Of a stretch of DNA of 43,608 nucleotides, positions 1 to 23,096 are shown piece by piece (within the stretch, counting starts at the first letter, position 1; every line of letters begins with the position of its first letter). The stretch comes from Atractiella rhizophila (lineage: Eukaryota): assembly GCA_021432655.1 (NCBI GenBank), contig MU271292.1, positions 62,001-105,608 of the forward strand, written 5' to 3'. Below the pieces are notes generated by a model that was not told where the DNA came from, ran no database searches, and saw only the letters and a list, made by a program, of their open reading frames with translations. Made by a program: the position numbers and the translations under genes.

Positions 1-843
1 GGGTTCGGCCTGGGTAGAATGGGCTTACCCGGGAGTGTAAAGATAAAAGGTGGGCTCGGAGTCGGTGGGATTCTGCCTCTCTATCGGGGACGGGATGGAG
101 AAGTGGACGGAGAAGCTGGTGAACCGCGCGAGAGAAAGAGCATGAAGATGGCCGTTGATCGAGTGCGACAACTCGGACGTTCAGTCAGCGCATTCAAGAG
201 GAACGATCAGAGAAATGATCAGACTTCCCAAGAACCGGCTCCGTTCAGTCAATTAGAGGCTCGGAAACCAATCTCGAGCAGGGATCTTCCCCCTACAGTG
301 GTCAAGATCGGGAATGGACTTGGAAACATCCCCAAGAAACCGAGCAGAGAGAACATCCGACCGCTTCCCTCTGAGCCAAGACCGCAACTTTCTCTTCCCT
401 CAAATCCCTCAAACCCTCCTCCTCCTCCGCAGCCCGTAGCACAGACATCCCTTCCTTCAGACCTTCCGTACGCTTCTACTTCCTCTACACAAATCAAGAC
501 TGCCGCTCCTCGGCCTCCACAACAACAAATGAGCATCCCCTTCCTCCTCCCCTCCACGTCTCCTCTTGGCTTGGGTTTCTCCTCCAATTCTCCCGTAGTT
601 GACGCTCGAGCTTCAGTCTCTGAATCACTCGGTGGCGTGACGCCTTTGTTGACCGCCAGAGGCTTGCCTAGCATGCCTTACACCCCGAGAGATAGCACCA
701 GTATAGAAGGAAGGCGAAGCGCGAGCATAGCGAGAGAGAAGAGGCTCACTGTCGAAACGGGTTTACGGATGCCCAGTGACGATAAGAAGGAAAAGGTGCA
801 GGCGGTGAATGGAGCGATTGACGGAAGAGGGGATATACTTTAG
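1..843 (+). CDS. 3' part of an unidentified gene (Pro/Ser-rich, low-complexity C-terminus), probably truncated by the window start
   Basis: Open frame of 274+ codons to TAG 841-843; disordered P/S-rich composition; no recognisable domain. Confidence 0.55.
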   Translation, partial: GFGLGRMGLPGSVKIKGGLGVGGILPLYRGRDGEVDGEAGEPRERKSMKMAVDRVRQLGRSVSAFKRNDQRNDQTSQEPAPFSQLEARKPISSRDLPPTVVKIGNGLGNIPKKPSRENIRPLPSEPRPQLSLPSNPSNPPPPPQPVAQTSLPSDLPYASTSSTQIKTAAPRPPQQQMSIPFLLPSTSPLGLGFSSNSPVVDARASVSESLGGVTPLLTARGLPSMPYTPRDSTSIEGRRSASIAREKRLTVETGLRMPSDDKKEKVQAVNGAIDGRGDIL

Positions 844-3800
844 TCTATCGCCTTCCAATGACGCAAATCCTGGTGATTTTTCAGTTTCATATATTTTAAA
901 GAACTGCTTGGATTCAATAAAGTGTGCTTGGGGTTCTTTCTTTGTATTTGAAAGGGCATAACCGTTTCTGGCCATCGTTTAGCACCAGCAGTTACAAACG
1001 ACATTCGACGAATGTAAATTCTGTAGCAAAACTTGTGCCTTTCGTACGGAGAACCTTCATTCTCTGGACTCCAAATGCTTGCAGTCCGCAGATTTTAAAG
1101 AATACCCGATGGTTTCATTAGAGGGTAAGTCTCGCGCAAGAAAGTCAGCTCGGAAAAGGCATTTGTCGTTTCCCAGCTTCCAATTGGTTGGTCCCTACAC
1201 TCGGACTTTTCAAAATTCAAAAACCACCGTTGCTCATGATCAAGCTCCCAAGTTTGGAGAGAGTCATATAGGTAGGCATTGTAGGCATGAGAGAAGATAA
1301 AAGAGCGCCGATATCTGTGGACGTTGGACTGGAGGATAGGGATTTGGAGCTAGTAGGTGTCTTGTTATGAATCTCCGTCATGGACTTGTCAATTTAACCA
1401 GCCAGAGAGCCATCAAAGGCACATTGACGGCAAGGCGTGATCCTGATCCTGACCGTGCAAATGCAAAGACTTGGTCATAACAAATTCGACACAGTCAAAT
1501 GTATCGCTGTTGAGATTATCAACTCCTTGTCATATAATTCCCTACCTTGTCTATGACGGCCCAAAAAGAGCTGAACTGCTGCTAATACTACCTAATGTGG
1601 AGGCCCTGCCTTGCGCTTGTCAAGTCCTTAGGCCTGCTTTGACCCAGCTCCAGGAACTCAAGCCATTGCTGGAGGGCCGACCCTGTAGTTGGTACTGCAT
1701 ACCAAGTTGCTGGTAGTGAGACTGATGTCTACCACAACTGCACATCCAAATATCTCCTTGTCAACGAATCTGAAAAGACTTTCCATACAGGTTTCCACGA
1801 ATGATGTGGATGTCGTGGCCCCAACTAGATCAGATGTTCAAACCAGCTTGGATAACATGAACGATGTCTTCAATTTGAATAAGAAAGGACTGTGGTGTTT
1901 GGCTGCTCAACACTTTTCAAGGTAACTGGTATCACCTCTCTTTTGTTAAGGAGCTAACATGCTGATGGCCCGGAAACTCAGCACTTGGGGAGATCGTTGC
2001 TCTGAATTTGCCTTTTACCTCTTTCTCATCGTTTTGTTCCCGAGTACACTTCTCCCAGCTTCGCTGTATGGATTCTTCACGACCAGTATGGGCTTTCCTT
2101 ATTGATCCAGAATGCGACTGAGAGAATATCAGGCTGTGGGGTAATTTTCTCACCATCCGTTGGAGGATTAGTCGACAGATACCCCCGCCTCAACCTCGTC
2201 CGCACATTCATCGTTCTACAAAAGATCTCATCAACGATCGCCTACGCTGTCAACTTGGTGCTCTTCGTGCACCAATCCACTTTCCACCTCTCCACCAACA
2301 GTTCAGGTGCTAAAGCTCAATCTCACGCTCCCCTCGCCTGGGTTCTGTTTGGTATCATCGTCCTTCTCGGTACAGTCCTCAAGCTTTCTACCGTCGGCAT
2401 TCAAGTTGCTATAGAGAGGGATTGGGCTACTACGATTGCGGGAGAGAACTCCGACGCTCTTACGAAGATAAATACGGTCCTAAGACGGATAGATCTCATC
2501 TCAAAGCTTGTAGCTCCTCTTTTCGTTTCTCTTCTCACTTCGACTACGGGATATCGCAACGCAGCTATCGGTTTACTTGCTTTTCAAACTGGGACCCTGA
2601 TGACAGAATTCTTTTGTACGTCCTCCTCCTCCACTCTGTTCCGAATGGAATAACTGGAACTTCTGCATCATGAAAGGGATAAGTGTCGTTTATACCAAGT
2701 TCCCTTCCCTCCAGCGGCACATACCCGAATTGCCACGACACTCCCTTTCTAAACCTCCCAAAGGGATGCGAAAGTTACAACCGTACTTCGAACTCTGGCT
2801 CCAATTTATCCACTCCAGCATCTTCCCCTCCTCCCTCGCCATCGCATTGCTGTATATGACCGTTCTCTCGTTTGACGGAACCCTCTTGTCATATCTGAAG
2901 ACGCACAAGTTTTCAGACGCCTTCCTAGCTGCCATGCGGGCTATCTGCGTCGTCGCCGGACTGGGAGGCACCTTTGTGATGCCTTGGTTGGAGAAGAAGG
3001 TCGGAGTATCCCTTCCTTCAGACCTTCCGTACGCTTCTACTTCCTCTACACAAATCAAGACTGCCGCTCCTCGGCCTCCACAACAACAAATGAGCATCCC
3101 CTTCCTCCTCCCCTCCACGTCTCCTCTTGGCTTGGGTTTCTCCTCCAATTCTCCCGTAGTTGACGCTCGAGCTTCAGTCTCTGAATCACTCGGTGGCGTG
3201 ACGCCTTTGTTGACCGCCAGAGGCTTGCCTAGCATGCCTTACACCCCGAGAGATAGCACCAGTATGGAAGGACGGCGAAGCGCGAGCATAGCGAGAGAGA
3301 AGAGGCTCACTGTCGAAACGGGTTTACGGATGCCCAGTGACGATAAGAAGGAAAAGGTGCAGGCGGTGAATGGAGCGATTGACGGAAGAGGGGATATACT
3401 TTAGTCTATCGCCTTCCAATGACGCAAATCCTGGTGATTTTTCAGTTTCATATATTTTAAAGAACTGCTTGGATTCAATAAAGTGTGCTTGGGGTTCTTT
3501 CTTTGTATTTGAAAGGGCATAACCGTTTCTGGCCATCGTTTAGCACCAGCAGTTACAAACGACATTCGACGAATGTAAATTCTGTAGCAAAACTTGTGCC
3601 TTTCGTACGGAGAACCTTCATTCTCTGGACTCCAAATGCTTGCAGTCCGCAGATTTTAAAGAATACCCGATGGTTTCATTAGAGGGTAAGTCTCGCGCAA
3701 GAAAGTCAGCTCGGAAAAGGCATTTGTCGTTTCCCAGCTTCCAATTGGTTGGTCCCTACACTCGGACTTTTCAAAATTCAAAAACCACCGTTGCTCATGA

Positions 3801-5569
3801 TCAAGCTCCCAAGTTTGGAGAGAGTCATATAGGTAGGCATTGTAGGCATGAGAGAAGATAAAAGAGCGCCGATATCTGTGGACGTTGGACTGGAGGATAG
3901 GGATTTGGAGCTAGTAGGTGTCTTGTTATGAATCTCCGTCATGGACTTGTCAATTTAACCAGCCAGAGAGCCATCAAAGGCACATTGACGGCAAGGCGTG
4001 ATCCTGATCCTGACCGTGCAAATGCAAAGACTTGGTCATAACAAATTCGACACGGTCAAATGTATCGCTGTTGAGATTATCAACTCCTTGTCATATAATT
4101 CCCTACCTTGTCTATGACGGCCCAAAAAGAGCTGAACTGCTGCTAATACTACCTAATGTGGAGGCCCTGCCTTGCGCTTGTCAAGTCCTTAGGCCTGCTT
4201 TGACCCAGCTCCAGGAACTCAAGCCATTGCTGGAGGGCCGACCCTGTAGTTGGTACTGCATACCAAGTTGCTGGTAGTGAGACTGATGTCTACCACAACT
4301 GCACATCCAAATATCTCCTTGTCAACGAATCTGAAAAGACTTTCCATACAGGTTTCCACGAATGATGTGGATGTCGTGGCCCCAACTAGATCACATGTTC
4401 AAACCAGCTTGGATAACATGAACGATGTCTTCAATTTGAATAAGAAAGGACTGTGGTGTTTGGCTGCTCAACACTTTTCAAGGTAACTGGTATCACCTCT
4501 CTTTTGTTAAGGAGCTAACATGCTGATGGCCCGGAAACTCAGCACTTGGGGAGATCGTTGCTCTGAATTTGCCTTTTACCTCTTTCTCATCGTTTTGTTC
4601 CCGAGTACACTTCTCCCAGCTTCGCTGTATGGATTCTTCACGACCAGTATGGGCTTTCCTTATTGATCCAGAATGCGACTGAGAGAATATCAGGCTGTGG
4701 GGTAATTTTCTCACCATCCGTTGGAGGATTAGTCGACAGATACCCCCGCCTCAACCTCGTCCGCACATTCATCGTTCTACAAAAGATCTCATCAACGATC
4801 GCCTACGCTGTCAACTTGGTGCTCTTCGTGCACCAATCCACTTTCCACCTCTCCACCAACAGTTCAGGTGCTAAAGCTCAATCTCACGCTCCCCTCGCCT
4901 GGGTTCTGTTTGGTATCATCGTCCTTCTCGGTACAGTCCTCAAGCTTTCTACCGTCGGCATTCAAGTTGCTATAGAGAGGGATTGGGCTACTACGATTGC
5001 GGGAGAGAACTCCGACGCTCTTACGAAGATAAATACGGTCCTAAGACGGATAGATCTCATCTCAAAGCTTGTAGCTCCTCTTTTCGTTTCTCTTCTCACT
5101 TCGACTACGGGATATCGCAACGCAGCTATCGGTTTACTTGCTTTTCAAACTGGGACCCTGATGACAGAATTCTTTTGTACGTCCTCCTCCTCCACTCTGT
5201 TCCGAATGGAATAACTGGAACTTCTGCATCATGAAAGGGATAAGTGTCGTTTATACCAAGTTCCCTTCCCTCCAGCGGCACATACCCGAATTGCCACGAC
5301 ACTCCCTTTCTAAACCTCCCAAAGGGATGCGAAAGTTACAACCGTACTTCGAACTCTGGCTCCAATTTATCCACTCCAGCATCTTCCCCTCCTCCCTCGC
5401 CATCGCATTGCTGTATATGACCGTTCTCTCGTTTGACGGAACCCTCTTGTCATATCTGAAGACGCACAAGTTTTCAGACGCCTTCCTAGCTGCCATGCGG
5501 GCTATCTGCGTCGTCGCCGGACTGGGAGGCACCTTTGTGATGCCTTGGTTGGAGAAGAAGGTCGGAGTA
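447..5569. repeat. Head-to-tail tandem duplication, 2561-bp unit (447-3007 / 3008-5568)
   Basis: Identical sequence at offset 2561; only 4 substitutions spotted by eye (705/3266, 712/3273, 1493/4054, 1833/4394); junction ggagt-A-tccc with 1-nt microhomology. Confidence 0.97.
1725..3404 (+). CDS. Chimeric copy: 5' part of ferroportin fused in frame to the duplicated C-terminus of the upstream gene
   Basis: Same exons as the intact ferroportin up to ...WLEKKVGV (3008), then reads SLPSDLPY...GRGDIL* identical to the upstream protein tail. Confidence 0.6.
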
Positions 5570-6330
5570 ATACGCGCCGGACTGTGGAGCATCTGGTCTG
5601 CCTTTCTTATTCATTTGATCCAATTTATGGCAGTCCTCAGAGAGAAATAGGACTCAAATCATTTGCCTGGTTCCTGTTCTGCTAACATTCTTTATCAAAG
5701 CTCCGCCTCCCGGTCAAAACGGACCAGTCTGGGGCTCGGTGCTGCTTTTTGGAGGTCCGTGCCTTTTCTGTCTCTCTATTGATTCTACGCAAGCAGAGAA
5801 ACAGGTCTCGCACTTTCAAGGATAGGATTATGGGCTTTTGATTTAGCACAGCTGAAGCAGTTGCAAACATCTTTACAAGGCCACACCAAACGAAATGCAT
5901 TGTAAGCTACCCTTTGAGGCATAGTTTGTGAACTTAACTGCCTCCAGAACGGCCCTTCAGTACTCGTTGCAGAATATTTTTGATCTGGCTAAGTCAGATA
6001 TTCTGCCGATGACCTCTTCACATTTAACACGCCTCTGCAGATACGTACTGACGATCATCCTGCACCGACCGTATGTTCCTTTGACGAGCTCACTACATCA
6101 TGAGATCTTATCGGACAGTCAGGTCACAATTTAAATGGGCAGTTCTAGTATCATTTATTAGCGTTTTCACAGGAGGCGAGTTCGCTTCTTTGTTCCTCCT
6201 GAACAGCAATCAGGCATTAACGCATGGGATTGCAGGATTAACTTACACCTTCTTTGCTAAGAGGGAGAGAGGACATATTTTGCATTGGGAGCGAGCTTAT
6301 GGTCTCCTTATGAAGAAAAATCCGTCATAA
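4286..6330 (+). CDS. Ferroportin (SLC40A1/FPN1-like) iron/metal exporter, multi-exon
   Basis: Spliced translation gives HFSSTWGDR.SEFA, GGLVDRYPRL, VAIERDW, INTVLRRIDLISKLVAP, ALLYMTVLSFDG, SRIGLWAFDL, Q.SLQNIFDL, all ferroportin hallmarks; canonical GT-AG introns; stop TAA 6328-6330. Confidence 0.93.
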
Positions 6331-7471: not shown

Positions 7472-8230
7472 TGATATAAATGTTCTTCACAAATAAAACA
7501 AAGAGAAAGAGGTTGGACAAAGCGATTAGATACTTTATCTGATCAATGTGGATCTGTGGATCAACAACGGGCGTTCGAATTTCCCGAACGACGAACACGA
7601 GAGCATTATCGAAGCCCACTTGTGGTGAAAGAGAGGAAAACCTTTTGCTTTCCTTAACAGACTGACAATTGGTATACTGCCGAAGGTGCGCACCATCAAG
7701 TTGCACTCTCGTACAATGGTTTGGGAGATGTCAAGTTGGTACAGTGGGAACAAGCATGGTAGATAGATGGGTCTGAGGTTTATTTGGCTTTGCGCCAGTC
7801 CTGTTACCCAGCAAGCGCGCAATAGCACTGCCAGTCCTTGTTGGGGTGTTAGTGCGTCGACGTTGGACCTCGGCAAAGGCATAGCGGCGCTTGACGCTTG
7901 TTACCTTTGTCTACCGAGGGAGATGTCTTTCAACTCCTCATTCTCCTTCATCTGAAGTCTATGGCATCTGACCCTTCCTGCCGAATCCCTAAATTGGTTG
8001 TATATAGACTCTTGACTTCCTCGTTAAGAGCGTTTCTGAAATTGTAACCTGAAGAGTCCTCTCAGGGCTCCCTTGTGATGACGAAGGCTTGTACGCTACA
8101 GTCCTGTATTATTGTGGAGTGAATAATGTATTGACATCCGTACTTCAATAGTGGACAGACGAAGAGAAGCTTTCGAGAGGCGTAGGCTAGCTCCGATAGC
8201 CAGCATCTTCCGACGCTGACCGTGACATAG

Positions 8231-11200
8231 AAGAGGCTGAAAAACCTGTCGGGTTCACCAATTAACAAATCTCGACTGAAAGCACAACCATTACAACCGT
8301 CGTACCCCCTCGTTGCGCCGCCAGCTGTTGCTCCATCGAAGCAGTCAAACCCTTTGCCGCCCACGTCGAACTGCATCGGAGACGGGATGATCGACCCTGA
8401 CCTGCACAAACGGCTTGTGGATATCAAGAAAGTGAATACCAAAGGTCTCCGCATCCTTTCGATCGACAATGGAGGTGTTTGCGCTTTCTCTTGCCTTTAT
8501 ATGCTCGAGGCCATTATGGAGCAAGTCGCAGATCTCCTTCCTGGGAAGCCAGATCCCGGAACCCTTCGACCATGTCAATTCTTCGACCTCATCTGCGGTA
8601 CATCAACTGGAGGGTGGATTGCTTTGATGCTCGGGCGACTGGGCATGACCGTCCGAGAGTGCATGGACGCGTTTAACGAAATCGTAAAGGGGGTCTTCTG
8701 CGAGAAGAGTCTTTGTACAGGCAGCTCACCTGCTTATTCTGACAAAGCCCTTGAAGAAGTGTTCGAGATGATCGTTAGAGATTACATCCTCCTTCCGAAA
8801 GTTCGATGATTACCTCTTTGGAATCGACAGCACTTCCGATGACCGATTCTAACTTCGAAGAGCGGTGTCGAACCTTTGTCATCGCCACGTACGAAGCCGA
8901 TTCGGTTGTTCCCCTAGAGATGCGCACTTACAGTGTTCCCTCCGCTGGAGGATCCGCAGCCAAGTGCTCCGTCGTAGATGCTGCAAAAGCGACATCTGCA
9001 GAACCGGCATTCTTTCCTCCTGTCACTCTCGACAAGACAGTGTACGTCCTGGTTGGCAACAACAATCCGTCCTTTTTCGCTGCGAAAGAGGCAAAGAAGA
9101 TCTGGGGGGTTGGGATTGAAGTCATTTGTTTCCTCTCCTTGGGTGTTGGCATTCGACCTGCGGTGAAACTTGGATCGAAGCCAAGCGAGGTCGAGGACGC
9201 CTTCAAAAAGATAGTAGAAGACTGCTCCCGCGTTGACAAAGAAATGAAGAACGAGATGCAGGGCCGCGGGATTGGCCACTGCTACCATCGATTCAACGTT
9301 GACACGATGGTGGGCGTCCAATGGGACGAGTTTGGACGGATGAAGGATGTTGTGGGACAGACGAAAGCTTATTTGGGTGGAATGGGTTATGAAACGAAGG
9401 CCGTGGCAGAATCTATCATCCTTGGTGTGTTTTTGCCCCTCTCAGTTTCTAGACTCATGACAGGCCGGCAGCTCATCGTCATCGAGTGGCAGTTCATGAA
9501 AAGGAGCCTCTCCCACCGCGCGGCCTTTGCTATGGAAGAACGAAGGAGATCGAAGAGGTGAGGACGGCCGTTCTAAGGGGTCGCCACGTAGCAATCATGG
9601 GTCTAGCCGGAAATGGGAAATCTACCGTTGCGCTTTCCGTGTTACATGACGAGTGTGTGAAGCCTGCCTTCGTAGTTCGAGAAGGAGATTTTCTTGTCGA
9701 GCGACGGTTTTGGGTCCGTTGTGACGCCTTCACTTCCTTCGCCGGCCTTGAGAACCATTTGTGTCGCCGGGTCTTCGCTCTATCGCGCCGGTTTGGTATC
9801 ACGGATTTGATGGCTGTGGCTGAATTTTTTCAAAACAACAAATGCCTTCTCATCCTGGACAATTTTGAGACACCTGCAGATTCAGATTCAGAACGGATGC
9901 AACATTTCTTTCAGGCTCTCGTCGGCGAAGCAGGAGTTGGTTCTATTCTCGTGCTTGCCATGCGTGGATATCATGTCCCACGAATCGATGTGAAAAGCGC
10001 TGCTTTTGTGCGGGTTGTCGTTGACACACTGAAGGAGGATAAGGCGGCAGCAAGGGATACCTTCTGTCATTTCTATGAAGGTGGTCGGGACCCAACAAAT
10101 GCTGATGTCACATCAAAGATTTTGTCGTGCCTAGATTACCATCCTCTTTGTATCCGCCTTTTTGCTCTGAGAGCAAAGCACGATCCATCTTCCAGCATAG
10201 CATATCTTCTGGAACTTTGGCGCCACCAAGCCAGTGCAGTTCTTTCAGAAAACGCTGACGGTAGAGACGGTACTCCAACACTCGACATATCACTCGGATT
10301 TTCTCTCACGTCTCCAGTCATCAGAGAACGGCCAGGCAGCTTCCTTGCTTTGTCATTTCTGTCTTGGTCTCCAGATGGTCTCCTACGCGCCGACCTGAAG
10401 GACTTACTTGCTGGAGATTATCGAGCCATCGATGCTATTCTGAGTGTTGGACTGGCAGATGAGATTCCAGCAGTGAAGAGAGTCTCGCAATGCTTGCGCA
10501 TGCTCGCCCCAATTCGAAGGCTCCTCAACGAGCTTGTTATGAAACAAGTACCCCCTTTCCCTCTGCGAATCCTAGACTCACTTCAACCTCTCTCCAATTG
10601 CCTTCTTGTCAAAGCGCAAGACGTAATACACCAATTCGAAGTGACGAAGCAGCAGGATGCCCTATTCGAATTGAGAGAAGAATATCTCAGCTTTCGACAG
10701 GTTATTTCTGACACACTGCTGCACGTTCCAGAAATGAGCGGAAGCATCACAGTTTTCCTTTTGGAAAACTCGAATACCCTCCTTTACCAGGGGTTCGATA
10801 CAACACAGCTATTGCAGAGAACTTTATCCAACCAAGAGTTGTCTGCCCCAGTGTTAGTCCGCTTGCGGTTGTACCTCGGACAGGCATTGGAATTTCGAGG
10901 CTATATTAAGGAAGCCTTAGAAGAGCTGCATGGCTCAATGAGGGATAGTACAGACATTGAGAACAAAGCAAATTGCCTCGAATCTATAGGGCAGATCCAT
11001 TTTCGATGCGGGAGCAACGAAGAAGCACTGGAGCGGTTGAAGCAGGCCGAGGAGCTGTACATCTTGACGGGGAGTGCACAGGGGAGGGCAAACTGCATCC
11101 AATCCATGGGGAGGATCGATTTTCGATGCGGGAGGAATACTGAAGCGCTTGGGCGATTCAAGGAGGCGGAGGAGCTGTACATCTCGACGGGGGATCCAGT

Positions 11201-13101
11201 GGGGATGGCAAACTGTGTCCAGTCCACAGGGAGGATCAATTTTCGATGTGGAAGGAATGAGGAAGCGCTGGAGCGATTCAAGGAGGCGGAGGAGTTGTAC
11301 ATCTCGACAGGTAGTACACAAGGGAGGGCAGACTGCGTCAAATGCATCGGGGATGTCGATTTTCAATGCGGGAGGAACAATGAAGCACTCGCGCAATTCA
11401 AGGAGGCGGAGCAGCTGTACATCTTGACGGGGGATCCATTCGGCAGGGCAGCCTGCGTCCAATCTATGGGGAGGATCGATTTTCAATGCGGGAGGAATGA
11501 GAAAGCGCTGCAGCGATTCAAGGAGGCTGCGGAGTTGTTCATCTCGACGGGTAGTGCACAAGGGAGAGCAAACTGCGTCCAATCCATGGGGAGGATTGAT
11601 ATTAGATGCGGAAGAAATGAGGAAGCGCTGAAGCGATTCAAGGAGGCGGAGGAGCTGTACATCTNNNNNNNNNNNNNNNNNNNNNNNNNNNNNNNNNNNN
11701 NNNNNNNNNNNNNNNNNNNNNNNNNNNNNNNNNNNNNNNNNNNNNNNNNNNNNNNNNNNNNNNNNNNNNNNNNNNNNNNNNNNNNNNNNNNNNNNNNNNN
11801 NNNNNNNNNNNNNNNNNNNNNNNNNNNNNNNNNNNNNNNNNNNNNNNNNNNNNNNNNNNNNNNNNNNNNNNNNNNNNNNNNNNNNNNNNNNNNNNNNNNN
11901 NNNNNNNNNNNNNNNNNNNNNNNNNNNNNNNNNNNNNNNNNNNNNNNNNNNNNNNNNNNNNNNNNNNNNNNNNNNNNNNNNNNNNNNNNNNNNNNNNNNN
12001 NNNNNNNNNNNNNNNNNNNNNNNNNNNNNNNNNNNNNNNNNNNNNNNNNNNNNNNNNNNNNNNNNNNNNNNNNNNNNNAAGGAGGCGGACAAGCTGTACA
12101 TTTCAACGGGTAGTACACAAGGGAGGGCAGACTGTGTCAAATCCATAGGGGATGTCGATTTTCAATGCGGGAGGAACAATGAAGCGCTCGCGCGATTCAA
12201 GGAGGCGGAGCAGCTGTACATCTTGACGGGGGATCCATTCGGCAGGGCAGACTGCGTCCAGTCCATGGGGAGGATCGATTTTCAATGCGGGAGGAACGAG
12301 GAAGCTCTGGAATGGTTCGAGGAGGCAGAGGAGCTTTATATCTCTACGGGTAGTCCACAAGGGAGGGCAGACTGCGTCCAATCCATGGGGAGGATTGATT
12401 TTCGATGCGGAAGGAACGAGAAAGCGCAGGAGCGATTCAAGGAGGCCACAAAGTTGTACATCTCGACGGGTAGTGCACAAGGGAGAGCAGACTGTGTGCA
12501 ATCTATTGGGAGGATCGATTTTCGATGTGGAAAGAATGAGGAAGCGCTGAAGCGATTCAAGGAGGCGGAGGAGCTGTACATCTCGACAGGGAGTGCACAG
12601 GGGAGGGCAAACTGTGTCCAATATATGGGGAGGATNNNNNNNNNNNNNNNNNNNNNNNNNNNNNNNNNNNNNNNNNNNNNNNNNNNNNNNNNNNNNNNNN
12701 NNNNNNNNNNNNNNNNNNNNNNNNNNNNNNNNNNNNNNNNNNNNNNNNNNTGTGTCCAATCTATGGGGAGGATCGATTTTCGGTGTGGGAGGAATAGTGA
12801 AGCATTGGAGCGATTCAAGGAGGCGGAGGAGCTGTACATCTCGACGGGGGATCCAGTGGGGAGGGCAGACTGTGTCCAGTCCATGGGGAGGATTGATTTT
12901 CAATGCAGGAGGAACGAGGAAGCACTGAGGCGATTCAAGGAGGCAGAGAAGATCTATCTTGAGGCAGGAGATGTATATAGCAGGTCTTATTGCCTTGATT
13001 GCATCGCAAAGGTTGACAGAAAGTCTGGGAGAACTGGATGGAGGCGCTGGAAACCACCGTTCAAGACGTGCGTCATTCTAAGTTTCTCCTACATTTCTTG
13101 A
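8231..13101 (+). CDS. Fungal NLR-like STAND protein: patatin (PNPLA) + NB-ARC + TPR repeats; start uncertain, two assembly gaps
   Basis: Patatin LRILSIDNGG, FDLICGTSTGG, ATSAEPAFF, NNP, LSLGVG, YHRFNV; Walker A GLAGNGKST; Walker B LLILDNFE; LDYHPLCI (GxPL-like); >=13 40-aa TPR-like repeats; phase-compatible intron 9425-9471. Confidence 0.9.
10965..12960 (+). repeat. Coding tandem array of ~120-bp TPR units, interrupted by N gaps 11665-12078 and 12636-12750
   Basis: Unit GRA(N/D)CVQSMGRIDF(R/Q)CGRNEEAL.RFKEAEELYIST repeats with a 120-nt period and high nucleotide identity. Confidence 0.97.
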
Positions 13102-13499
13102 GTATTCATTGACCCCGTACAGTTTCATAGCCCAAGTTAAAGGAACGCACGTTGCCCAGTGATACAGAGAGACTTTCGAAGTTCAGTAATAATTTTTCAT
13201 ATTGGCGTATAGAAGCAGAGAAAGTTGTGGATGTCAATGAAATCCTAGCTCACTGGTGACTGGCCCACGGAGTCTGGTCGATGTTCCCAAATGCATGTAC
13301 CCAACCCTGACTGGGGGACCTGGTGGAGAGTTACTTTCTGGATTTGGTGAAGATTAGTGGCAGACCGACATAGACGAAGATGGGGTATAACAGTTCTCAG
13401 CTTTCATTCTACGGTAATACATACAAGTTAGGTGCCAAACAAAATAAATTATGTGTCTGCTTCACATATTCGGCAACTTCTGGCTTCTGGGGGCTGACG

Positions 13500-15450
13500 A
13501 CATTACTCACAAACAAGTATGACTTCAGCACAGCTCATTCAGACGATATCCAAACCCTCGACCATCTACCAGCACGATCTCTCCCATGTCCGCCGTCTTT
13601 CTCTTCTCTTCGACCGTCTCTTTCCTCTCCGTCTCCTCAGAAGGTTTGTCGAACTACCTCATCCCGTCCTTCAGTCTTGAAAGCACTTTAACCTCTTCCT
13701 TTCCACCGTTCATCTTCCCCTGATTCCACAACCGCCCCAGCCGTCTTTTCCAGCTCTTCTCCCCTCCAACTCCTCTTCCAACTGCAACACCCTCGCCCTC
13801 AACCTTCCATTGGCGACCTCGAGCGCATTAAAAGCGCTCCTGCAACTTCGTCGGATCCAAGGTACCCATCAACCTCTCTGAGTGAGAATCCTGGTCCTGC
13901 TGCTGTCGCCGTGCTTCATGCTAAATGAAAATAGTAGCTCTTATCTTTACTCGCAGATTCTAAGGTTCCCCAATCACGTATAAGCAAATGCGAATACAGT
14001 AAAGATATTTGATTTCGTTATGAAGTAATAGACATACCTAAGGTTCCCCAATCACGTATAAGCAAATGCGAATACAGTAAAGATATTTGATTGGGGAAAA
14101 CAGAAAGCAAAACCCATAGCCATGCTTTATAAGTCCGGACTAACGGTGAAGTGCACATGTTTGGCACGGCATCCGGAACGCAAGGCAAACGATCGAGATT
14201 TGTGTCCACACACCCATCTCCTCTCTCTCCTTTCCATTGTATTATTGATGTCCAACAATGCTGAGACCGCCTTGTCGCTTCAGACCCTAAGTCTGGGATG
14301 TTCATCCGGTACTTCCTCCGAACTTGATGGTGTGGAAGGTGTCGGAGACAGACCGCAGGAATTGTTGCTTGAAGTGGATTTGGGCGGAAGAGGACGTGGA
14401 ACTGGTTTGTAAGGTTGCGTAGAGGACTTTCGCTTTTTTTGTGGTGGAGGCGCTGAATCCCTCACTCGTTCTTTTGTGGATGCGCTGGTGGGGCGTGAGG
14501 AATGTGGGAGGTGGGAGCTAGGGTGTACTTTTCTGGAGAAGTAGAGGGTGTGGCTGTAAGTAGACATAAAGCAGTGGATACGCCGGAAGGAGTGGTGGAG
14601 AGAGGTAGAGGAGAGATGGGACAAAATATCTGTGCGGAGGAGGTTGCATGTCGATTTCTCCATCTATCCATTGCCGCTCATTGAGTCGACATACAGCAAC
14701 AGAATGAAGGGACGATGCACCCGTCATCTCTGACTCCCATGCCTTTCAATCAGACATCAATCCACCTCCACCGTGCCTTGCATGTTCTACATCGGTCCCC
14801 CCATTTTTGCTCCAACAATGCCGTCAACGTCGACATCGTCCGCCGTTCCTTTCCCTTCGTCGAATGCGTGCCCGCCTTTGATAGGTGAGCTCTCATTTAA
14901 GCGAGTATAGGGATCAAAATCGACCAATTGCCATCTATGAATGAGTTGAGGTACTGATCGACGATGTGCATGTCCAACAGCGTCTGAGAATTGACTGGCT
15001 GGGGAATACGCCTAAACGCGTTGCGTGAGCGGCGTTTCAAGCGGAAACCTGCGGAACGGAGGAAGCGTTGGAGGAGGCGGAGGCGAGGGTCAAGCTAGAG
15101 AGATTGGAGGAGGTCTGGCGGGAGGGTGCAGAGGGTAAAGTTGGTGTTGGGGTTCGTGTTCAAGAGCCGCTGGCGTTGAGGGTGTCATTGCCCATGCTGT
15201 TCCTGATGAATCCTGCGTTGGACTTGGCTGAATACTGGCGCAGAAAGATATGAAGATGAGATGTCGTCGAATGTTCGTTGTTTGAGTTTGAAGGGACGCG
15301 ACGACCTTATCATGCCGCGGCAATTGATTCCGCAACCATAATCAAACCAACTCCTCCTGCGCTGGGCCAAGCTGGGCCAAACTGGATTAGCTGCTGGCAA
15401 AGATTTATAATCTGGAGAATCTCTGTGCACCGTCTCTGGAAATACCAAGT
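13500..15450 (-). pseudogene. Probable degenerate minus-strand gene remnant
   Basis: Coding-like segments broken by frameshifts/stops (LMGTLDPTKLQERF / NALEVANGRLRARVLQLEEELE coiled coil near 13760-13880; P/S-rich ORF 14280-14663); no family recognised. Confidence 0.3.
13960..14092. repeat. Perfect 55-bp direct repeat (13960-14014, 14038-14092) with 23-bp spacer
   Basis: ctaaggttccccaatcacgtataagcaaatgcgaatacagtaaagatatttgatt occurs twice. Confidence 0.95.
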
Positions 15451-19783: not shown

Positions 19784-22070
19784 ACCAGGAGAACATCTGA
19801 GTACGCTGGCATATTAGCCTACTTCTTCTTTTTTAAGGTCAACATCCATATAATTACCACATCTCGTTCAAACCAGGCAATGACTCGCCGAGGGACGTCC
19901 AAATTGTACATTATAAGAAGTCCAGCACGGTCCAAGCCTGATTTCGCTTTTATTTGTGAACATCACTCTACTTATACTCCTATCGTGAGCAATGATTTTC
20001 AGCCTCCAAAGTCATGGTAAATCTACTCCGGAGCGCGGACACCGTGATGGCGCTCCAAAACGAGCTAGTCCGGCCAATGTGATGTGTGAGCCCTCGTTTC
20101 TTGTGCTAATAATCCAGATCAAGACTGACAAGTAGCCCCAGCTCTCAGGAAACGGAAGACTCAGGCTGTGACATCTGAAAGAGACGATCCGGGGCGGCCG
20201 TCGCTCCCATCTGATTTGATCCACCTCATCCTCAAGGGGATTTGGCTTGATGCGTTGGCTTGTTGGAAAGGACATTATGATGCAGTCTGCGACTTCTGGC
20301 GGTTGAGGATGCTTTCCCGCACGTTTAGAGAAGAGGTTGTGCGATTGAGATGTCGTGTTATCACGGTACACTCTTACCGACAGCTTGAAAAGCTCATGCG
20401 CCGAAGCAACGCTCACCTCCATCCTTTCATTCGTATTGTCGAATTTCACATTGATTACGATCCTGAAACCTCTTCCTCTCCTTTCCTACCTATCTTGACC
20501 TTTCAGTTCTCCTTGAAACCGATTGCAGATAACGTATGGACGTGGATGTCTTCCTTGGTCTTTTTGGAAGAGTTGGAGTTTCATGGAGAGTTGCTCGAAC
20601 TCGTTGTTCCACCCATTCGGGGTCTTCGCCGTCTACTTCTACGCCGATGGGGAGGTCTGCTCCCTCCACGGACACTACATAACATCGTCCCACAATTGAC
20701 TGATTTCAATTCGTTGGAGTCCCTAGAAATTGACGGATCGATCCATTGTTCCGACGATGCTTCTGCAACCCTTCAAGCCCCTTGCTCCGTACAAAGATTG
20801 TCTACAGGCCAGCATACTGCTGTTTCCAAAAGGAGCAAACCTCAAGTCACGATTAGGACAGTGCCAACTTTTTGTTCTTCACGAAACATCACCTCGCTTT
20901 CAACCCATGAGGCGAGCTGGAGTGTCACCAGGAGAACATCTGAGTACGCTGGCATATTAGCCTACTTCTTCTTTTTTAAGGTCAACATCCATATAATTAC
21001 CACATCTCGTTCAAACCAGGCAATGACTCGCCGAGGGACGTCCAAATTGTACATTATAAGAAGTCCAGCACGGTCCAAGCCTGATTTCGCTTTTATTTGT
21101 GAACATCACTCTACTTATACTCCTATCGTGAGCAATGATTTTCAGCCTCCAAAGTCATGGTAAATCTACTCCGGAGCGCGGACACCGTGATGGCGCTCCA
21201 AAACGAGCTAGTCCGGCCAATGTGATGTGTGAGCCCTCGTTTCTTGTGCTAATAATCCAGATCAAGACTGACAAGTAGCCCCAGCTCTCAGGAAACGGAA
21301 AACTCAGGCTGTGACATCTGAAAGAGACGATCCGGGGCGGCCGTCGCTCCCATCTGATTTGATCCACCTCATCCTCAAGGGGATTTGGCTTGATGCGTTG
21401 GCTTGTTGGAAAGGACATTATGATGCAGTCTGCGACTTCTGGCGGTTGAGGATGCTTTCCCGCACGTTTAGAGAAGAGGTTGTGCGATTGAGATGTCGTG
21501 TTATCACGGTACACTCTTACCGACAGCTTGAAAAGCTCATGCGCCGAAGCAACGCTCACCTCCATCCTTTCATTCGTATTGTCGAATTTCACATTGATTA
21601 CGATCCTGAAACCTCTTCCTCTCCTTTCCTACCTATCTTGACCTTTCAGTTCTCCTTGAAACCGATTGCAGATAACATATGGACGTGGATACCTTCCTTG
21701 GTCAATTTGGAAGAGTTAGAGTTTCATGGAGAGTTACTCGAACTCGTTGTCCCACCCATTCGCGGTCTTCGCCGTCTACTTCTACGCCGATGGGGAGGTC
21801 TGCTCCCTCCACGGACACTACATAACATCGTCCCACAATTGACTGATTTCAATTCGTTAGAGTCCCTAGAAATTGACGGATCGATCCATTGTTCGGACGA
21901 TGCTTCTGCAACCCTTCAAGCCCCTTGCTCCGTACAAAGATTGTCTATAGGCCAGCATACTGCTGTTTCCAAAAGGAGCAAACCTCAAGGCACGATTAGG
22001 ACAGTGCCAACTTTTTGTTCTTCACGAAACATCACCTCGCTTTCAACCCATGAGGCGACCTGGAGTGTCA
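19784..22070. repeat. Head-to-tail tandem duplication, 1143-bp unit (19784-20926 / 20927-22069)
   Basis: Near-identical sequence at offset 1143; junction gtgtc-A-ccagg with 1-nt microhomology; substitutions concentrated in the coding 3' half. Confidence 0.97.
19992..21163 (+). pseudogene. Truncated/chimeric F-box-LRR-like copy; reads into duplicated upstream non-coding DNA after 20927
   Basis: Same ATG/intron structure as 21135-22531 but loses the last ~150 codons, replaced by ..TRRTSEYAG..PPKSW*. Confidence 0.7.
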
Positions 22071-22531
22071 GAAAGCTGTATCGAGTGCTCGAGGTGCTAA
22101 AATCATCCTTGAACGAGCTTGCAGTTTTGTCCCTACGTCGCCTAACACTTCCCGCTCTCCGTGCTCTTCGATGCCTCAAGTTGGATGGGAGATATCCTCA
22201 CTCTCCCGAGTTCGCTACAATCGCCCCGCACTCAGATTGTTGGTCTTCCCTCTCAGTCCTCAGCCTGACTCGCATTTCCATCAGTCAGCTTTCTGAAGAA
22301 TACGTTCCAATTTACATCACACACTCGCTCACTCTAAAGCACTGTTTAATTAAGGTGCACATCGCCGTCAGGTTATTAGAAGTAGAGCAAACAAAATTCC
22401 GTTTCGTCGCTTCCAACACGTATTCTTCACCTTCTCCATCGTACAAAGGACGCAGCAAAGAAAAAGTAGCTGTGTGGGATAAGCTGCGAGAGCAAGATGC
22501 AGAGTACGTTAGGCGAAAACAGACATTGTGA
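21135..22531 (+). CDS. F-box-like + LRR (RNI-like) protein, paralog A
   Basis: ATG 21135, phase-1 intron ending ccccag 21284, long exon with LPSDLIHLILK...LRMLSRTFR F-box-like motif and LxxLxL repeats. Confidence 0.75.
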
Positions 22532-23096
22532 ATGACTTTCATCAATGAGGTGTCGTTGGGTACTCGCACAGCGATCAATGTACTTTCTAGGCTACCTTGT
22601 GAGCAACACGAGGAAGAGGGTCAAGTAATTTGTTGCTGATTTGTGATTTGTAACGATGTAATTTTAGTAGTGCGTCCTACTCACCTTTCCACCTTTATTC
22701 ATCCTGATTTGTCAACGAGCACTTGTCTTGATGAATGTTGGTATCTGCACTATACAAAGACATTGTGGCGGAGACAACCCAAGTCACAGTATTATCCAGT
22801 TGAACGCAAATGCAACCAGTCCCATCGATACTGATCGAGAAACATCAAGACCTGCAGGCAATCAACTGAGTACGAAGGCTTACTCAGTGAAAAATTTGTG
22901 AAGCGAATTGTCTGGGTCAGCGGAGTAAACTAGGGGTGGGTACCAGTGCCCGCATAATTAATCACCTGCACAAAGTCACTTAGTACGTATCTACGAGCCA
23001 CTGGTGACTCGACAAGGGACTTGCTTGGTTAAATAGTACCACTCGATCGTTATACTCTTCACTTAGAAGTCCACGTCGATGTATTGGCATTGAGCA

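Follow-up and report, generated by a model that had tools for sequence, protein, structure and literature searches.

The window analysed here is a stretch of 43,608 nucleotides from Atractiella rhizophila (assembly GCA_021432655.1, contig MU271292.1, positions 62,001 to 105,608, forward strand), and all coordinates given below refer to it. Inspection of all three frames over 8000-13200 revealed a single gene that encodes, in this order, a patatin head, a signal transduction ATPase with numerous domains (STAND) NTPase of NB-ARC-type fold, and an array of tetratricopeptide repeats (TPRs). This architecture is real: Pfam placed a patatin domain (PF01734, E 6e-7), the STAND NTPase and two TPR_12 matches (E 3e-22 and 2e-25) along the gene, which thereby combines the N-terminal effector, central nucleotide-binding and oligomerisation domain (NOD) and C-terminal repeats of a fungal NOD-like receptor (NLR). 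The patatin region is carried by two frames, and the NOD and repeats by one long frame. The features are as follows.

8387-9424, plus strand: exon 1, patatin-like head of about 346 amino acids, a probable pseudo-enzyme (PF01734, shared ATG, fold search)
8459-8491, plus strand: altered oxyanion loop SIDNGGVCAFS, DGGG[VI]R in intact relatives (alignments)
8597-8611, plus strand: nucleophile motif GTSTG, intact (46 of 47 NLR-linked heads have the Ser)
8787-8789, plus strand: 1-nt frameshift within a run of C, probably an assembly error (paralogues, read-derived contigs)
9043-9069, plus strand: YVLVGNNNP, with the catalytic Asp changed to Leu and two residues deleted; YVDGGxGxNNP when intact (alignments)
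9425-9471, plus strand: 47-nt GT..AG intron joining head to NOD in frame (phase, paralogue conservation, spliced X3 contig)
9472-10589, plus strand: STAND NTPase with nucleotide-binding (NBD), helical and winged-helix parts, NB-ARC-type fold, nSTAND1-like (Pfam, model, Foldseek)
10590-10967, plus strand: helical linker leading to the repeats (dS to the probable allele about 0.45-0.48)
10968-12984, plus strand: TPR array of at least 14 units of 40 amino acids (120 bp), with two N gaps (period, unit count)
11665-12078, no strand: assembly gap of 414 N
12636-12750, no strand: assembly gap of 115 N
12985-13101, plus strand: capping helix, non-conserved tail and stop codon (tail comparison)

An earlier note on this DNA had started the gene at 8231, which is merely where a stop-to-stop frame opens. 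The ATG at 8387, common to seven close copies, is the likely start, because the close subclade has lost an older upstream ATG and carries frame-changing indels there. The note had also missed that the gene is not a single open reading frame (ORF), being interrupted by a frameshift and an intron. The intron at 9425-9471 fits in phase and is conserved among paralogues, and its splice was seen in a contig of run X3 (run type unrecorded). At 8787-8789, one base is missing relative to the paralogues, splitting the patatin frame. All contig depth at 8787 in runs X1 and X2 carries an extra C, which is the sole difference from the window in an X1 contig spanning 8731-8878, and X1 depth at the frameshift (282) is about three times that at a copy-specific segment (96), which fits three copies, this one included. 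We conclude that the frameshift is probably an assembly error; the support from read-derived contigs is strong, if not final, because such contigs drop rare variants. Five candidate introns that might bypass the frameshift were tried, none of which combined good splice sites with the right phase, and the paralogues and read contigs point instead to a simple one-nucleotide gap. Public annotation holds only a fragment of the gene (P0127), whose predicted product would span about 1,450-1,550 amino acids.

The head has lost part of its catalytic machinery, a point that the earlier note had missed. Among 90 loci fetched from the same genome, 56 carried a full patatin domain in one frame, followed in 49 by a NOD (47 unique heads). 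Alignment to solved patatins of the cyclic oligonucleotide-based antiphage signalling system (CBASS) and to intact patatins of the same genome showed that YVDGGxGxNNP has become YVLVGNNNP, with the Asp replaced and two residues deleted. None of the 47 NLR-linked heads has the catalytic Asp, which 38 of 39 outside proteins keep; in 46 heads N or S stands in for the first oxyanion Gly, and 13 retain the oxyanion Arg. In this copy, the oxyanion loop reads DNGGVC instead of GGGxR/K and the DG[G/A] motif of the Asp is missing, while the GxSxG nucleophile motif is present as GTSTG. Pairwise dN/dS (nonsynonymous to synonymous divergence) between heads, from the 261 of 1081 pairs with dS 0.05-1, had a median of 0.23 and a maximum of 0.58, demonstrating purifying selection on the domain. 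Judged by its sequence, the head is probably a pseudo-enzyme, and the loss of a catalytic residue from a lipase-like head suggests that it signals by assembly with other proteins rather than by lipid cleavage. It would instead be an enzyme with non-standard chemistry, attacking lipids as PLP-1 of Neurospora crassa does, if the Ser worked with another base or with an acid supplied by a neighbour or partner. The presence of the GxSxG Ser in 46 of 47 heads, the purifying selection and the 13 conserved Arg residues would suit such an enzyme. We nevertheless consider it unlikely, since the Asp column holds eight different residues beside a common two-residue deletion, the first oxyanion Gly is almost always replaced, and none of the possible substitute acids near the active site is invariant. 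The Glu of an SAEP motif, considered as a substitute, was rejected because it is confined to the close subclade. A structural model of the intact paralogue L022 had a mean predicted local distance difference test score (pLDDT) of 58, and of <50 at residues 206-226 around the active site, too poor to reveal an alternative base.

The fold search with this model matched CapE/CapV, iPLA2beta and patatin. The CBASS effectors CapE and CapV are the closest solved sequences and folds to the head, at 15-19% identity, and the titles of their PDB entries describe ligand-bound filaments; both are active enzymes under cyclic-nucleotide control, and neither is an NLR head. In a FastTree phylogeny of 93 patatin domains (arbitrary root, other Pucciniomycotina thinly sampled), the Asp-less heads formed one clade (48 sequences, support 0.877), which grouped with the intact stand-alone patatins L081-L083, plus L090 and L085 (support 0.961). 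L081-L083 are the three complete stand-alone patatins in the genome with all motifs intact; of the others, L080 is cut by a contig end and that on contig C258 is a frameshifted chimera. Across 141 patatin profile hits, the DG-type motif was kept in 118, absent in 20 and not covered in 3. Six of the 20 Asp-less hits are encoded in the window or labelled Atractiella and one is from Rhizoctonia solani, and several others have a Walker A motif and a Ser-to-Gly change, a different lesion. No description of Asp-less patatin NLRs was found in searches of an open-access library of papers.

Several unusual patatins were recorded alongside. L085 (C209) is a divergent patatin NLR, basal to the family, in which GGGIR and the Ser are kept and the Asp is absent. 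On C258 (L104:102-1605, minus strand, with L089), one reading frame continues from an aspartic protease (PF00026, E 7e-48) through a predicted transmembrane segment to the beginning of a patatin; the patatin motifs are intact, after which the frame shifts, leaving a receptor-like protease-membrane-patatin chimera that is perhaps broken or mis-assembled. The N-terminal membrane and protease part was rejected as a feature of stand-alone patatins, as it occurs at this chimera only. L086, L087, L090, L091 and L099 (C124, C548) are patatin groups lacking a nearby NOD motif, with altered catalytic motifs (FVDVSGSGDLNP, YLAGVNDNSNP), and some of them adjoin leucine-rich repeat (LRR)-like ORFs. Two-patatin proteins from other sources comprise P0007, P0130, P0135 and P0158; in P0007 (Mycena), an intact patatin precedes a Ser-dead one, possibly as two fused gene models, and in P0130 (Rhizoctonia), two Ser-dead patatins lie ahead of an NB-ARC-TPR part.

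The NOD retains its nucleotide-binding motifs, Walker A (GLAGNGKS, 9600-9623) and Walker B (CLLILDNFE, 9843-9869) being intact here and in each of the 48 NOD cores accepted by the motif filter. Its earlier assignment to NB-ARC is borne out by the predicted fold and not by Pfam, which gave no PF00931 match for this copy, only nSTAND1 (E 8e-6 to 3e-5) and, also weakly, AAA_16; family-wide, all matches were weak and divided among NB-ARC (23/42), NACHT (35/42) and nSTAND1 (41/42). The NOD model (pLDDT 88) matched ZAR1, NRC2 and Apaf-1 in Foldseek (TM up to 0.68), along with the AAA+ domains of ORC/Cdc6, and an NB-ARC-type label therefore appears fair despite the ambiguous Pfam result. A profile of the family NOD scored bacterial STAND-TPR proteins and one Thelephora protein at 89-122 bits, vs <=34 bits for other fungal patatin NLRs, whose Walker B is of the WLLxxDN type. 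The bacterial proteins (e.g., P0268 and L130, the latter from a Thermoanaerobaculia metagenome-assembled genome) share the motifs RRFWVRCD, LDNFE and RLRMLAPIR with the family, are 27-33% identical over the NOD and carry the same 40-aa ANCI-type TPRs, but have N-terminal domains other than patatin (SIR2-like or others); the named relatives come from metagenome-assembled genomes such as those of Thermoanaerobaculia, Terriglobia and Anaerolineaceae. In a FastTree phylogeny of 64 NOD cores, a set that did not contain PLP-1 itself, the Atractiella sequences joined the bacterial relatives and three agaricomycete proteins (support 0.97), and fungal patatin-NB-ARC proteins with 42-aa repeats formed a separate clade (support 1.00). 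Because of this separation, the architecture looks convergent with that of PLP-1. Horizontal transfer of the NOD-TPR module was considered and set aside, no direction being inferable with bacterial and agaricomycete members unresolved in the same clade.

The repeat array has the 120-bp period and the minimum of 13 units reported previously, with 14 distinct unit positions touched, 10 of them complete; neither N gap keeps the phase of the period, and both conceal further units. The units had also been called near-identical, which overstates their likeness, the 10 complete ones averaging 78% nucleotide identity (67-96%) and ranging from 48 to 95% as protein. According to the survey by Dyrka and colleagues, repeats of high internal conservation (HiC) show >=85% internal identity over 100 amino acids (PMC4986451), a level reached here by a single duplicated segment that spans the first gap (89% over 100 amino acids). 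Some paralogues are far more homogeneous internally (C137, 92%; C143, 90%), and the number of in-frame repeat motifs varies from 0 to 16 among 40 paralogues. The variable sites named before are real: position 2 (N/D/A), 13 (R/Q), 22 (after EAL) and the loop at 36-38. Residues G8, G15, A20, F24 and A27 presumably place the unit in standard TPR numbering, in which we take positions 2, 5, 6, 9, 12 and 13 to face the concave surface. Variation is concentrated at these six positions and in loop 36-38, where the proportion of nonsynonymous differences (pN) is about 2.5 times that of the rest, and the structural repeat positions are invariant.

Selection was tested, at low power, by pairwise counts on 74 unique clean units, drawn from the 93 that 12 loci yielded. 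The nonsynonymous to synonymous ratio (pN/pS) was 0.36 across the 37 disjoint nearest pairs and 0.44 between units of this copy. No codon exceeded a pN/pS of 1, so the excess of nonsynonymous change per repeat codon that had been anticipated was not observed; weak site-specific selection would still be compatible with a test of this kind. In 27 of the 37 nearest pairs, both units belonged to the same gene. The view that this gene is a fungal NLR whose repeat sensor is diversifying is upheld by the variation in repeat number, by these within-gene nearest units and by the different array of the probable second haplotype described below. The HNWD family and the HiC TPR NLRs (Dyrka et al. 2014) likewise vary in repeat number, homogenise repeats within genes, exchange sequence between genes and have their variable sites on the predicted concave face; compared with HiC NLRs, this copy attains their internal identity only narrowly, and positive selection was not detected.

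A second version of the locus is present in the assembly. Contig C365 begins at window position 7590 and ends at 31014, with both ends >99% identical to the window and a largely colinear course between them, the pattern of a haplotype bubble. It is probably a second haplotype on sequence grounds, though it may instead be a segmental duplicate, and the small contigs C1802 and C1672 reveal a further copy. Divergence from C365 rises from 0.8% at the 5' end to 13-19% across the five bins between 10100 and 13600 (substitutions, which inside the array were not aligned unit to unit) and then falls to a median of 2.2% and a maximum of 8.9% over 33 downstream bins. On the way from the NBD to the repeats, dS climbs from 0.11 to 0.48, and dN/dS stays at 0.12-0.29 in four segments of the NOD and linker. 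The C365 array carries a 1-nt shift and contains 12 units, none of them >88% like any unit of this copy. At least 14 units are present here, which amounts to a repeat-number polymorphism if the two are alleles; the array is thus not monomorphic, the state that would have spoken against the earlier note. Paralogues are mosaics (37 runs vs 47.8 expected, p 0.004), and conversion explains part of the divergence peak, because over 10449-10568 C365 matches other paralogues at 91-94% and this copy at 80%.

Such a peak bears on the proposal, made in the earlier note, of a non-self recognition gene, here framed as an allorecognition (het/vic) locus of the PLP-1/SEC-9 type that balancing selection would keep polymorphic. 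PLP-1, HET-Z1/PaPlp1 of Podospora anserina and VIC2 of Cryphonectria parasitica share the patatin-STAND-TPR order, an intact P-loop and a polymorphic locus with this gene, according to published accounts (PMC12881547, PMC13449251, 10.1101/2022.04.03.486892). The sharp divergence peak and the different arrays of the probable haplotypes fit this explanation. PLP-1, however, requires lipase activity for cell death according to reviews (PMC12881547; 10.1101/2022.04.03.486892), whereas the head described here, with its competence judged by sequence only, lacks the Asp and has an altered oxyanion loop. Its repeats measure 40 amino acids, compared with 42 in the 10 fungal patatin-NLR hits tested, and its NOD falls outside their clade. 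The vic2 analogy drawn earlier consequently fails at the effector, where the lipase dyad is broken, and in the NOD, which is of another lineage; lacking an active-type lipase and differing in NOD ancestry, the gene does not belong to the PLP-1/HET-Z1/VIC2 group. In addition, this gene is one of many paralogues, conversion accounts for part of the peak, and both alleles coexist in one strain if C365 represents the second nucleus. No SNARE partner was found among 20 ORFs scanned in the window or in the co-duplicated convergent gene, where small-exon genes could escape, and a genome-wide SNAP-25 search gave no match anywhere, with controls equally silent. The flanking genes encode a DUF1349 protein, a ferroportin, an amidohydrolase and a low-complexity protein with no Pfam match. 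The last, the convergent neighbour, was rejected as a SEC-9-like partner, having no Pfam match and being broken both here and in C365. We therefore judge an allorecognition locus to be an improbable description of this gene.

The gene belongs to a lineage-specific expansion in Atractiella. Searches of its own genome returned 90 matches for the NOD (86 of 156 candidates scored), 150 for the head and 115 for the Pfam patatin model, some of the NOD matches being pieces of a single gene, and these dozens of copies contrast with a mean of 1.7 patatin NLRs per species given in a published survey (PMC4986451). The NOD frame is long in 40 of the 49 NLR-linked loci. The tails of family members are not conserved, and a C-terminal prenylation motif suggested by CVIL was rejected on that account. 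Several members, including the L035-L036 entry, have long extra C-terminal regions, and P0121 has a BAG domain (PF02179) after the repeats.

The remainder of the window shows several further features. At 13500-15350 on the minus strand lies the low-complexity gene mentioned above, with two exons and a coiled-coil-like C-terminal part, which is co-duplicated with the NLR; it is intact at L022 (C113 paralogue) and frameshifted here and in C365. A 335-bp insertion at 13923-14257, missing from C365 and C1672, has an internal 55-bp direct repeat and many partial copies in the genome, and is probably a small mobile element. Pieces of the ferroportin gene (FPN1) recur in a tandem repeat with 2561-bp spacing at 1-5650, 99% identical where compared, which may be a genuine duplication or have arisen in assembly. 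At 19784-24490 lie three related ORFs with no Pfam match, LRR-like and possibly F-box-like, the first two sharing a near-identical duplication with 1143-bp spacing that is single in C365. About 23 tandem copies of a 20-bp unit are found at 30102-30661, beside which C365 has about 16 kb of extra sequence, and a Crinkler N-terminal domain (PF20147) lies upstream of a kinase-like region at 31837-34114 (minus strand), absent from the colinear part of C365.

Taken as a whole, we favour, with a probability of roughly 0.6, an intracellular NLR-type non-self sensor with a pseudo-enzyme head, encoded by a gene that is intact but damaged in the assembly and that forms part of the Atractiella expansion. 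A number of observations weigh against this reading. Positive selection was not detected in the repeats. The NOD frame is short or broken in 9 of the 49 NLR-linked loci and extra repeat motifs lie out of frame in 17 of the 40 long-NOD loci, meaning that some members are decaying or mis-assembled. Transcripts could not be assigned with confidence to this exact copy, since the spliced X3 contig, with other letters at 9417 and 9521, may derive from a paralogue and RNA run X6 yielded only three short, non-identical pieces; run X3 has zero cover over 10525-10960. A fully dead enzyme need not have kept its nucleophile Ser so consistently, and no NOD motif was found within the approximately 2 kb read downstream of L081-L083. 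The absence of any codon with pN/pS above 1 would also suit a pseudogene, or a neutral product of birth-and-death turnover in the family, with the array differences reflecting relaxed constraint and slippage, as would the frameshift in the assembly, the fragmentary annotation, the many broken paralogues and the broken passenger gene next door. Read-derived contigs restore the frame, 737 codons run stop-free across the NOD and repeats, dN/dS to the probable allele is low, and the structural repeat positions do not vary, all of which make a pseudogene very unlikely.

Under the favoured sensor reading, the concave face of the 40-aa TPR array would bind a protein that is foreign or altered, with specificity reshuffled through gain, loss and conversion of repeats. 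Binding would release the STAND switch, leading to nucleotide exchange and oligomerisation. The clustered patatin heads, presumably without hydrolysing lipids, would then serve as an assembly surface that relays the signal, most plausibly to the small number of intact stand-alone patatins that gave rise to the heads, with cell death as a possible outcome.

A patatin-NOD-TPR architecture is by itself known and ordinary; the family context is what is unusual. Dozens of copies with a broken catalytic dyad maintained by selection suggest a non-enzymatic output for a patatin NLR. As a tentative and rather speculative extension, the system might be split into sensors and executioners, in which dozens of pseudo-patatin NLRs with reshuffled TPRs would converge on a few active stand-alone patatins and activate them by nucleating patatin-patatin assembly (CapE-type filaments); such a receptor would have arisen separately from PLP-1, by joining a bacterial-like STAND-TPR module to a patatin of the fungus itself. 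The dead-head design may recur, since other fungi, Rhizoctonia with P0130 among them, have NLR patatin heads that are independently Ser/Asp-dead and Mycena P0007 pairs an intact with a Ser-dead patatin. The small, defined set of candidate executioners among the stand-alone patatins makes the idea directly testable, and the two very different sensor arrays in one strain would offer, in a root endophyte, a tractable locus for studying what basidiomycete NLRs recognise.

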